Shown here piece after piece: positions 47,698 through 48,297 of a stretch of DNA of 64,000 nt. Source of the stretch: Candidatus Moraniibacteriota bacterium (GTDB lineage Bacteria > Patescibacteriota > Minisyncoccia > Moranbacterales > DUUL01); NCBI GenBank assembly GCA_041596615.1, contig JBFHIG010000002.1, forward strand, positions 67,162 to 131,161, written 5' to 3'. The first letter of the stretch is position 1, and each line of letters starts with the position of its first letter. The notes beneath the pieces were generated by a model. That model ran no database searches and was not told where the DNA came from. It saw only the letters and a list, made by a program, of their open reading frames with translations. The position numbers and the translations under genes are program-made.

Positions 47698-47773
47698 TGG
47701 AGCCTACGGTCGGACTCGAACCGACGACCGATCGCTTACAAGGCGATTGCTCTACCAACTGAGCTACGTAGGC
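47698..47773 (-). tRNA. tRNA-Thr (anticodon UGU), CCA encoded
   Basis: Reverse complement: GCCTACG TA GCTC AGTTGGTA GAGC A ATCGC CTTGTAA GCGAT CGGTC GTCGG TTCGAGT CCGAC CGTAGGC T CCA. Confidence 0.93.
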
Positions 47774-47817
47774 ATTTTAAATTTTAACCGTTTTTGAAAA
47801 TATACCAAACCATTGTG

Positions 47818-47866
47818 TTCCTCGGACCCTGCCCGGCTAACTAGCGGGAACCCAAGCTACGTAGGC
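47818..47866 (-). other. exact 12-nt copy of the tRNA-Thr(UGU) 5' end fused to a GC-rich hairpin region
   Basis: Minus strand reads GCCTACGTAGCT (47866-47855; identical to 47773-47762), followed by TGGGTTCCCGCTAGTTAGCCGGGCAGGGTCCGAGGAAC. Confidence 0.6.
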
Positions 47867-47982
47867 GTTATTTAATTTCGAATTTCCAATTTTGAATTTT
47901 GAATGAATTTTCTAATGACTCAATGTTTTAAAAGAGCTATGTTTTGTTTGAAAATTCTTAATTCTTAATTGCAGTGTCTCTG

Positions 47983-48065
47983 TGGGCCGGGAGAGATTTG
48001 AACTCCCGTAGGCTTTCGCCGCCTGATTTACAGTCAGGTGCATTTGACCACTCTGCCACCGACCC
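47983..48065 (-). tRNA. tRNA-Tyr (anticodon GUA), class II long variable arm
   Basis: Reverse complement: GGGTCGG TG GCAG AGTGGTCAAAT GCAC CTGA CTGTAAA TCAG G CGGCGAAAGCCTAC GGGAG TTCAAAT CTCTC CCGGCCC A. The anticodon loop CTGTAAA gives GTA. Confidence 0.88.
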
Positions 48066-48110
48066 ATGCATAATTCTTGTTGATTTTCAAGACTTTTCTG
48101 TCTACTTGAA

Positions 48111-48165
48111 ATGGACCACTTCCGCCCTAGGCGGACCATCCTTGGGTTGGCTACCACCGACCCAT
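48111..48165 (-). other. exact 12-nt copy of the tRNA-Tyr 5' end (with 2 nt of 5' flank) forming an acceptor-stem-like minihelix, plus a GC hairpin
   Basis: Minus strand reads ATGGGTCGGTGG (48165-48154; identical to 48067-48056). GGGTCGG-tggtag-CCAACCC forms a 7-bp minihelix with one C-A mismatch. Then ATGG...CCGCC-tag-GGCGG...CCAT. Confidence 0.6.
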
Positions 48166-48194
48166 CAATTCATTCTATAAACTTCTAATTTGTG

Positions 48195-48267
48195 AGCCGA
48201 TGCGCGGATTTGAACCGCGGACTTATTCCTTACCATGGAATTACTCTACCAACTGAGTTACATCGGC
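48195..48267 (-). tRNA. tRNA-Thr (anticodon GGU)
   Basis: Reverse complement: GCCGATG TA ACTC AGTTGGTA GAGT A ATTCC ATGGTAA GGAAT AAGTC CGCGG TTCAAAT CCGCG CATCGGC T. Confidence 0.92.
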
Positions 48268-48268
48268 A

Positions 48269-48297
48269 ATTATATTTCAAATCAAAAAAAAAGTCAA
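48269..48297 (-). promoter_or_regulatory. near-consensus promoter (TTGACT, 17-nt spacer, TATAAT) abutting the first tRNA
   Basis: Minus strand has TTGACT at 48297-48292 and TATAAT at 48274-48269. The -10 hexamer ends only 1 nt before tRNA position +1, so the geometry is odd. Confidence 0.35.

Follow-up and report, generated by a model that had tools for sequence, protein, structure and literature searches.

Why should two genes of a single tRNA operon each be preceded by an exact copy of its own 5′ end? The operon in question lies in a 64-kb window, the whole stretch of DNA analysed here, from the genome of a Candidatus Moraniibacteriota bacterium (Patescibacteria, or Candidate Phyla Radiation, CPR). 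It runs on the minus strand in the order tRNA-Thr(GGU), tRNA-Tyr(GUA), tRNA-Thr(UGU), terminator hairpin; this order, proposed earlier by a reading of the sequence alone (the sequence-only reading), was confirmed by ARAGORN and the Rfam tRNA model, which agree on the three tRNAs. ATGGGTCGGTGG is present at 48165–48154 and at 48067–48056, the first copy lying 98 nt upstream of the true tRNA-Tyr 5′ end, and GCCTACGTAGCT is present at 47866–47855 and at 47773–47762, the first copy lying 93 nt upstream of the true tRNA-Thr(UGU) 5′ end. The coordinates are those claimed by the sequence-only reading, and each sequence occurs twice, and only twice, on the two strands of the window. For any one tRNA, the probability that an exact 12-mer recurs by chance within 150 nt is about 1e-5. 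Our comparison with related genomes indicates that the two upstream copies are very probably dead relics left by recent duplicative insertions.

The repeats cover tRNA positions −2 to 10 for tRNA-Tyr and 1 to 12 for tRNA-Thr(UGU), that is, the 5′ acceptor strand and the start of the D-stem. The tRNA-Tyr relic (48154–48165, minus strand) consists of AT followed by positions 1–10, and if one mismatch is allowed the repeat lengthens to 15 nt and the relic reaches 48151; the tRNA-Thr(UGU) relic (47855–47866, minus strand) is an exact copy of positions 1–12. Between the relic and the true gene there are 86 nt for tRNA-Tyr and 81 nt for tRNA-Thr(UGU), which together with the 12-bp duplication make insertions of 98 bp and 93 bp. 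In each of two independent events, 81–86 bp of unrelated DNA entered a tRNA gene within about a dozen nucleotides of its start, and 12 bp were duplicated. The break falls after about position 10–13 in tRNA-Tyr and after position 12 in tRNA-Thr(UGU), where the D-arm begins. The downstream copy of the repeat (48056–48067 and 47762–47773, respectively) completes an intact tRNA, while the upstream copy is a dead relic joined to the old spacer.

Both inserts begin with about 40 GC-rich nucleotides (0.64–0.66 GC in 50-nt segments, against 0.35 for the window as a whole), followed by about 40 AT-rich nucleotides and then by the true tRNA. In insert 1 the GC-rich part occupies 48112–48153 and the AT-rich tail 48068–48111, the tail being now the immediate 5′ leader of tRNA-Tyr; in insert 2 they occupy 47815–47854 and 47774–47814 (all minus strand). 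The sequence-only reading described both elements as GC-rich hairpins followed by AT-rich stretches. The composition holds for both, but the hairpins hold for element 1 only, which folds into two of them (−26.3 kcal/mol, z = −2.45 relative to shuffled sequence), whereas the GC-rich part of element 2 shows no folding beyond that of shuffled sequence (z = +1.25). In hairpin 1 (48164–48143) the relic tRNA-Tyr 5′ strand is paired with CCAACCCA, forming the acceptor-like minihelix GGGUC.GGU/GCC.AACCC. This minihelix had also been predicted, and it does form within element 1, although it is not perfect, as it contains one C–A mismatch. Hairpin 2 (48141–48113) has the core TCCGCC-TAG-GGCGGA (48121–48135); with its CCGCC..GGCGG part at 48122–48134, it is the window's single hairpin of this type.

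The strongest evidence for insertion comes from related loci (designated by L-numbers), which were found via RNase J and match Candidatus Moraniibacteriota and other Patescibacteria. In L008, L002 and L001 the region downstream of RNase J contains the same Thr(GGU)–Tyr–Thr(UGU) operon, which is also present in L040 and L041 (both metagenome contigs), L045/L046 and L048. In all five distinct relatives that have the operon, including the sister genome L008, neither insert is present. Spacer 1, between tRNA-Thr(GGU) and tRNA-Tyr, measures 128 nt in the window, 32 nt in L045/L046 and 28–30 nt in L008, L002, L001, L040, L041 and L048; for spacer 2, between tRNA-Tyr and tRNA-Thr(UGU), the lengths are 208 nt, 151 nt and 12–22 nt, respectively. 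The relatives' spacer 1 aligns with the window sequence just upstream of the tRNA-Tyr relic (48166–48193, minus strand), which is thus homologous to their 28–32-nt spacers and represents ancestral spacer 1. Similarly, the AT-rich spacer 2 of L045 aligns with the 115 nt of AT-rich sequence upstream of the tRNA-Thr(UGU) relic in the window (47867–47981, minus strand) and then abuts the true tRNA-Thr; the window's 115-nt stretch terminates in the ancestral spacer that formerly abutted tRNA-Thr(UGU). Judged from these alignments, the relatives preserve the empty sites, with clean junctions, of two insertions of 98 bp and 93 bp, both of which include a 12-bp duplication.

The tree of RNase J identities groups the loci as ((window, L008), (L045, L043)), with (L001, L002, L048) as sister group; together with the empty sites, this makes both inserts recent gains on the window's own branch. 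The alignment of relatives that the sequence-only reading had proposed as a check therefore gave empty sites with clean junctions for both inserts, and its suggestion that the elements are insertion footprints is borne out, in that the inserts are absent from all five distinct relatives and the ancestral spacer lies upstream of both pseudo copies. Spacer 2 as such is gained and lost quickly, since the spacer of L045 is homologous to that of the window and yet absent from the sister L008. The L045 spacer (4458–4608, 151 nt, AT-rich) holds three tandem repeats of GAATTTC.

Could the upstream elements have been made locally, from the tRNA genes themselves? The sequence-only reading had offered decayed tRNA duplicates as one explanation, and this did not survive comparison with shuffled sequences: the 81–86 nt that follow the repeat resemble the rest of their own tRNA no more than shuffles do, by global and local alignment (p = 0.26–1.0), and neither element gives a tRNA-like signal with ARAGORN or with the Rfam tRNA model at E ≤ 10. 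A broader version supposes a local duplication, either of the whole tRNA in tandem or of the spacer plus the 5′ third of the tRNA by replication slippage or template switching, that was later remodelled. The spacing of the repeats, 98 and 93 nt, is indeed close to the length of a tRNA plus a short spacer, and at some loci the tRNA sequence resumes beyond the GC block exactly where it broke off. This is best seen at two relic units of a tRNA-Leu locus in L022, L022_A (TTGGCAGAC, p = 0.005) and L022_B (p = 0.04), and is weaker in the window, for tRNA-Tyr (AGTGGTC, p = 0.11) and for tRNA-Thr (TTGGTA, p = 0.29). However, the inserts are dissimilar to the rest of the tRNA and lack a cloverleaf signal. 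A tandem duplication of spacer plus 5′ third is rejected, as the AT-rich tails are unlike the upstream spacers. Template switching that patched together segments of the cognate tRNA, direct or inverted, is rejected too, as on neither strand do the GC-rich parts have an excess of 5- or 6-mers in common with that tRNA. In addition, uniform decay since the divergence from L008 could not have left an exact 12-mer beside wholly unrelated sequence. Local duplication is thus largely refuted for the window inserts, and as a general origin of the elements we consider it very improbable.

That the inserts might be errors of assembly is a concern for any metagenome-assembled genome, and only one assembly supports this region. 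Exact-protein look-ups for independent assemblies returned only Logan contigs: two contigs of SRR29257459 (L039 and L042), identical to the window, break off inside tRNA-Thr(UGU) and tRNA-Thr(GGU), the flanking tRNAs. At the 90% level, the clusters to which the two flanking proteins belong have no other member. Against an artefact, a repeat of 12 nt falls well below the k-mers and overlaps that assemblers use, the inserts consist of unique sequence without repeats and are coherent in architecture, and a similar architecture is found in independent assemblies of other genomes. We therefore regard an artefact as scarcely credible, first of all because of the length of the repeat. The ends of the L039 and L042 contigs suggest that co-occurring strains share the flanking tRNAs but differ between them.

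A third possibility is that the inserts are tiny non-autonomous elements mobilized by a site-specific recombinase acting in trans on the D-arm, the 12 bp being either a target duplication or a core site; they would then be integrase-less miniatures of the islands that target tRNA genes, or miniature inverted-repeat transposable elements (MITEs). Several observations fit such elements: the direct repeats are exact and fall at nearly the same position in two tRNA genes, the inserts are of similar size (86 and 81 nt), the tRNA is always left intact, and relic units have accumulated in tandem at a single tRNA, three of them in L022 and two in L033, much as they do at integration hot spots. The events are also confined to tRNA genes. 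Direct repeats of 11–12 nt spaced by 40–250 nt show no general excess in the window, which argues that the insertions are tRNA-specific and led us to reject a genome-wide insertion process with duplications of about 12 bp.

The sequences of the inserts do not have the properties expected of an element. Insert 1 and insert 2 are not significantly similar to each other (p = 0.83 direct, p = 0.11 as reverse complement), and the fillers at L022, L033 and L011 are also mutually unrelated. Terminal inverted repeats are absent in all frames with target duplications of 0–12 nt, the best match (10/14) being the acceptor-like hairpin. A search for second copies with blastn-short in the window and 38 loci gave nothing of 14 nt or more beyond low-complexity AT runs; a distant blastn search of phage records gave only noise (E about 0.2–0.7), and three pattern scans of viral contigs gave no match. 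No recombinase or integrase is encoded by the immediate neighbours, the inserts themselves, at 81–86 nt, carry no gene, and breakpoints range over tRNA positions 10 to 17. Rfam searches over the operon, at the gathering score and at E ≤ 10, matched nothing on either element and only the tRNAs. Dissimilarity and the lack of inverted repeats, and of further copies in the sequences searched, argue against a classical MITE, as they do, with the results above, against decayed duplicates and simple local duplication. Since some features that define an integrative element or a MITE were looked for and are absent, the inserts are assigned to neither class, and we find the site-specific element an unlikely explanation.

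Two sequence resemblances were considered and set aside. An element common to insert 1, insert 2 and a GC-rich island near tRNA-Glu, suggested by the shared GGTCCG and CAGGTCCGAG, is not significant, and neither insert is similar to that island. A candidate third, older relic, ACATAGCTC (47942–47934, 8/9 matches), was judged not significant on its own.

Similar arrangements occur at other tRNA genes. We scanned all 43 tRNAs, in the window and in 42 Patescibacteria loci (532 kb), for copies of their 5′ 14-mer with at most two mismatches within 350 nt. Five copies were found upstream, at four tRNAs, none downstream and none on the other strand, where about 0.05 would be expected by chance. The cases besides those of the window are tRNA-Leu(CAG) in L022, with three tandem relic units, and in L033, with two. 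Mirror cases also exist, in which an 18–30-nt copy of the tRNA 3′ end lies downstream of the gene (L011 and L023). The layout is consistent, a GC-rich hairpin adjoining the relic and AT-rich sequence adjoining the working gene, and the breakpoints fall at positions 10–17, in the D-arm, or in the T-loop.

Hairpins of the type found in insert 1 also tend to lie near tRNA genes. Over all loci, (T)CCGCC-N2-6-GGCGG(A) has 27 matches, whereas other GC 5-mer stems have 0–17 and the reverse orientation has 5; 10 of the 27 lie no more than 400 nt from a tRNA, and such zones together cover about 7% of the sequence. They are found beside tRNA-Leu in eight other loci, among them L004, L005, L013, L018, L022, L023 and L025. 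Elsewhere, hairpins of the TCCGCC-N3-GGCGGA type stand directly after genes and look like terminators; the window's own terminators are of another type.

Two of the tRNA-Leu loci bear on the origin of the inserted DNA. L004 carries, at 3735–3960, a tRNA-Leu(CAG) with a different acceptor stem from that of its counterpart at this site in the close relative L003 (5774–5880, also tRNA-Leu(CAG)), followed by 66 nt, two GC hairpins and then the last 18 nt of an L003-type tRNA, this 18-nt relic lying 130 nt downstream. The two loci are near-identical rightwards from the T-loop and unalignable leftwards, which places the breakpoint exactly in the T-loop. In L022 (2288–2690), relics of a tRNA-Leu with the acceptor stem GCCCAGG/CCTGGGC, three of the 5′ end upstream and one of the 3′ end downstream, surround a working gene with the stem GCCGCGG/CCGCGGC, and the first of these relics occupies the site of the true gene in L034. 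Because the relic allele differs from the working allele, foreign DNA has, on the evidence of these alignments, entered at L004 and L022. No further cases of strain-level polymorphism at tRNA-Leu loci were found in 14 population contigs.

These observations lead us to propose, tentatively, that the window inserts were acquired by recombinational capture of foreign or ectopic DNA; taking insertion and route together, the elements are probably scars of recombination-driven insertion at tRNA genes. The inserted DNA would have arrived by recombination in which the conserved, GC-rich tRNA sequence served as a homologous or microhomologous anchor, either by homology-facilitated illegitimate recombination or by homeologous recombination of DNA imported from related cells. 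The incoming piece might have been the upstream region of another tRNA gene, consisting of a GC-rich, terminator-like hairpin, an AT-rich leader or promoter and the start of the tRNA. Selection would then keep only the events that restore a whole tRNA, and this could explain why 5′ relics lie upstream of the working gene and 3′ relics downstream. Naturally transformable bacteria are known to undergo homology-facilitated illegitimate recombination, with joints of 3–10 bp (PMC6382021). In a related Moraniibacteriota population (L060–L063), the gene immediately downstream of RNase J is a ComEC-type competence gene (PF03772), involved in DNA uptake.

Several points weigh against this proposal. No donor was found for either insert, and both the foreign origin and the microhomology joint are inferred. 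The working tRNAs of the window are identical to those of its closest relatives, and the window therefore bears no allele-level sign of foreign DNA. Duplication of recipient DNA, rather than deletion, is not usual for homology-facilitated illegitimate recombination. Two adjacent genes were struck almost at one and the same position of the tRNA, each with an exact repeat of 12 bp, a pattern likewise compatible with a dedicated site-specific enzyme. Finally, the inserts are known from a single assembly, the two independent Logan contigs breaking inside the flanking tRNAs.

How does this compare with known systems? Elements integrated at tRNA genes reportedly duplicate the 3′ part of the gene, from the anticodon loop, the T-loop or the 3′ end (a finding attributed to Williams in 2002). 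As with such elements, the window inserts are flanked by a direct repeat of part of a tRNA, leave one complete and one partial tRNA and regenerate an intact gene. Unlike them, the inserts are only 81–86 bp long and gene-free, have a repeat of 12 bp and break the gene at its 5′ end, in the D-arm, whereas prophages, integrative and conjugative elements and genomic islands, which prefer tRNA genes as targets, measure 9–23 kb, encode an integrase and usually have repeats of tens of bp (PMC9897764). Duplications of the 3′ type are seen at L004, L011 and L023, not in the window. MITEs and insertion sequences likewise place a short non-coding insert within an exact direct repeat of the target, but the window inserts have no terminal inverted repeats, no other copies were found in the window, the 38 loci, the phage records or the viral contigs, and they are unrelated to each other. 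Target-site duplications of the IS4 family are 9–13 bp long.

At the tyrT locus of Escherichia coli, repeat units of 178 bp each end in the last 19 nt of tRNA-Tyr. There too, the non-coding part of an operon contains repeated pieces of one of the operon's own tRNA genes, but the E. coli repeats copy the 3′ end, lie downstream and are similar tandem units, whereas those of the window copy the 5′ end, are single and upstream, and carry unrelated filler. A parallel to the proposed capture is homology-facilitated illegitimate recombination in Acinetobacter, Streptococcus pneumoniae and Pseudomonas stutzeri, where one anchor and a 3–10-bp microhomology joint admit unrelated DNA beside conserved sequence (PMC6382021). 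The replacement of alleles at L004 and L022 shows that foreign, tRNA-bearing DNA enters such loci, as this type of recombination allows. Nevertheless, it usually deletes or replaces recipient DNA while the events in the window duplicate 12 bp, and a tRNA is a very short anchor. In the literature on CPR/Patescibacteria we found no description of such insertions at tRNA 5′ ends.

What do the relics do to the tRNAs that they precede? The 5′ leaders of tRNA-Tyr and tRNA-Thr(UGU) would be about 100 nt longer, to be removed by RNase P. In the tRNA-Tyr leader the relic strand would be locked in its own 9-bp hairpin; in the tRNA-Thr(UGU) leader it would be free and, on paper, able to compete for the 3′ acceptor strand. 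The sequence-only reading had raised the idea of functional decoys that compete for the 3′ acceptor strand or for RNase P. In a fuller form of this idea, the relic strands would serve as decoys or as leader elements that modulate tRNA maturation, with the GC hairpins tuning the competition. Energetically this is conceivable: in constrained folding, pseudo-paired and native acceptor stems differ by no more than about 1 kcal/mol (ensemble ΔΔG, +0.7 kcal/mol for tRNA-Tyr and −0.9 kcal/mol for tRNA-Thr(UGU)), and the unconstrained minimum free energy fold of the tRNA-Thr precursor employs the relic strand. The tRNA-Tyr relic strand is sequestered by CCAACCCA, which resembles the true 3′ strand CCGGCCCA, and the architecture is seen again in three lineages. 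Nearest-neighbour energies, however, omit tRNA tertiary structure and co-transcriptional folding, which both favour the native stem.

The comparative evidence also speaks against selected decoys. The elements are absent from the sister L008 and from all other relatives with the same operon, although their tRNAs are identical or nearly so, and this absence indicates no conserved function. Moreover, the fillers show no conservation of sequence, significant structure is lacking in element 2, and no Rfam family matches. Of the decoy reading, then, the near-equality of the two pairings stood, in these folding models, while a function is quite improbable; competition for the acceptor strand, where predicted, is regarded as a by-product with no selected function.

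A more far-reaching interpretation, which we consider doubtful, is that Patescibacteria have an undescribed process of tRNA-directed micro-insertion, which would recurrently break the gene in the D-arm or T-loop, bring in hairpin-bearing segments of 50–150 bp or a whole replacement tRNA, always regenerate a working gene and leave arrays of tRNA-end relics. It might use a dedicated recombinase or be a transformation-driven exchange of cassettes in which tRNA fragments serve as portable homology arms, and relic strands acting as folding competitors might be neutralized by local hairpins under selection. tRNA genes are classic landing sites of large mobile elements, and the window shows the same logic at less than 100 bp, on the 5′ side and with no recombinase gene, in a phylum of streamlined genomes. 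Were insertion of this kind general, it would form a separate route by which intergenic sequence turns over and tRNA alleles are replaced, in a phylum believed to rely on DNA uptake, and it would account for tRNA-end fragments that confuse annotation. The window also offers natural precursors with an exact decoy of the acceptor 5′ strand about 95 nt upstream, a test case for the choice of ends by RNase P and by co-transcriptional folding.

Of the operon's three tRNA genes, tRNA-Thr(GGU), the first (48194–48267, minus strand), scores 67.5 bits, the functional tRNA-Tyr(GUA) (47982–48065, minus strand) 60.4 bits and the functional tRNA-Thr(UGU), whose CCA is encoded (47698–47773, minus strand), 74.2 bits. 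Nearly all tRNA-Tyr columns are invariant in an alignment (A1) of the window with L001, L002, L008, L040 and L041; the tRNA-Tyr genes of L045 and L048 differ at a few positions. A promoter-like site, TTGACT-17-TATAAT (48269–48297, minus strand, 11/12 matches, columns invariant in all relatives), ends 1 nt before position +1 of tRNA-Thr(GGU), and this arrangement too is invariant across the relatives; standard sigma-70 geometry would put the start of transcription about 5–7 nt inside tRNA-Thr(GGU). A weak promoter-like site, TTGGTA-16-TAAAAT (47808–47781, 9/12 matches), lies in the AT-rich tail of insert 2 and ends 7 nt before position +1 of tRNA-Thr(UGU). The operon ends at a terminator hairpin (47675–47688), CACCC-N4-GGGTG with T runs on both sides, that is conserved in relatives.

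The flanking genes encode, by Pfam, SBP_bac_5, PGI, RNase J (45581–47398), a PSP1-domain protein, EF-Ts and S2, and one has no Pfam match. The intergenic region between RNase J and tRNA-Thr(UGU) measures 300 nt in the window (47399–47697), 543 nt in L008 (7819–8360) and 56–90 nt in L001 and L002. In the window it contains a plus-strand promoter-like sequence, TTAACA-16-TAAAAT (47507–47534), followed by a GC-richer stretch, and a small transcript from 47399–47697 is possible, to judge from these motifs.

The sequence-only reading had also noted an 8-nt echo of tRNA-Glu in a GC-rich region nearby. This match is at chance level, as such an 8-mer is present in 42% of random 401-nt segments of the genome. 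The region itself holds a 121-nt island of 0.70 GC (29173–29293) in the 634-nt intergenic region downstream of tRNA-Glu; Rfam at E ≤ 1 over the tRNA-Glu region matched nothing besides the tRNA. The island contains a perfect 26-nt palindrome, GACACGTCGCTCG/CGAGCGACGTGTC (29211–29236), and further hairpins, and a T-loop-like sequence, GTTCGATTC, lies near it on the opposite strand (about 29326–29334). Further along the window, an exact 20-nt direct repeat, ATTTCCTGCGGTATATAAAT, is present at 28545–28564 and 28596–28615, 51 nt apart, within the open reading frame at 27594–28760.

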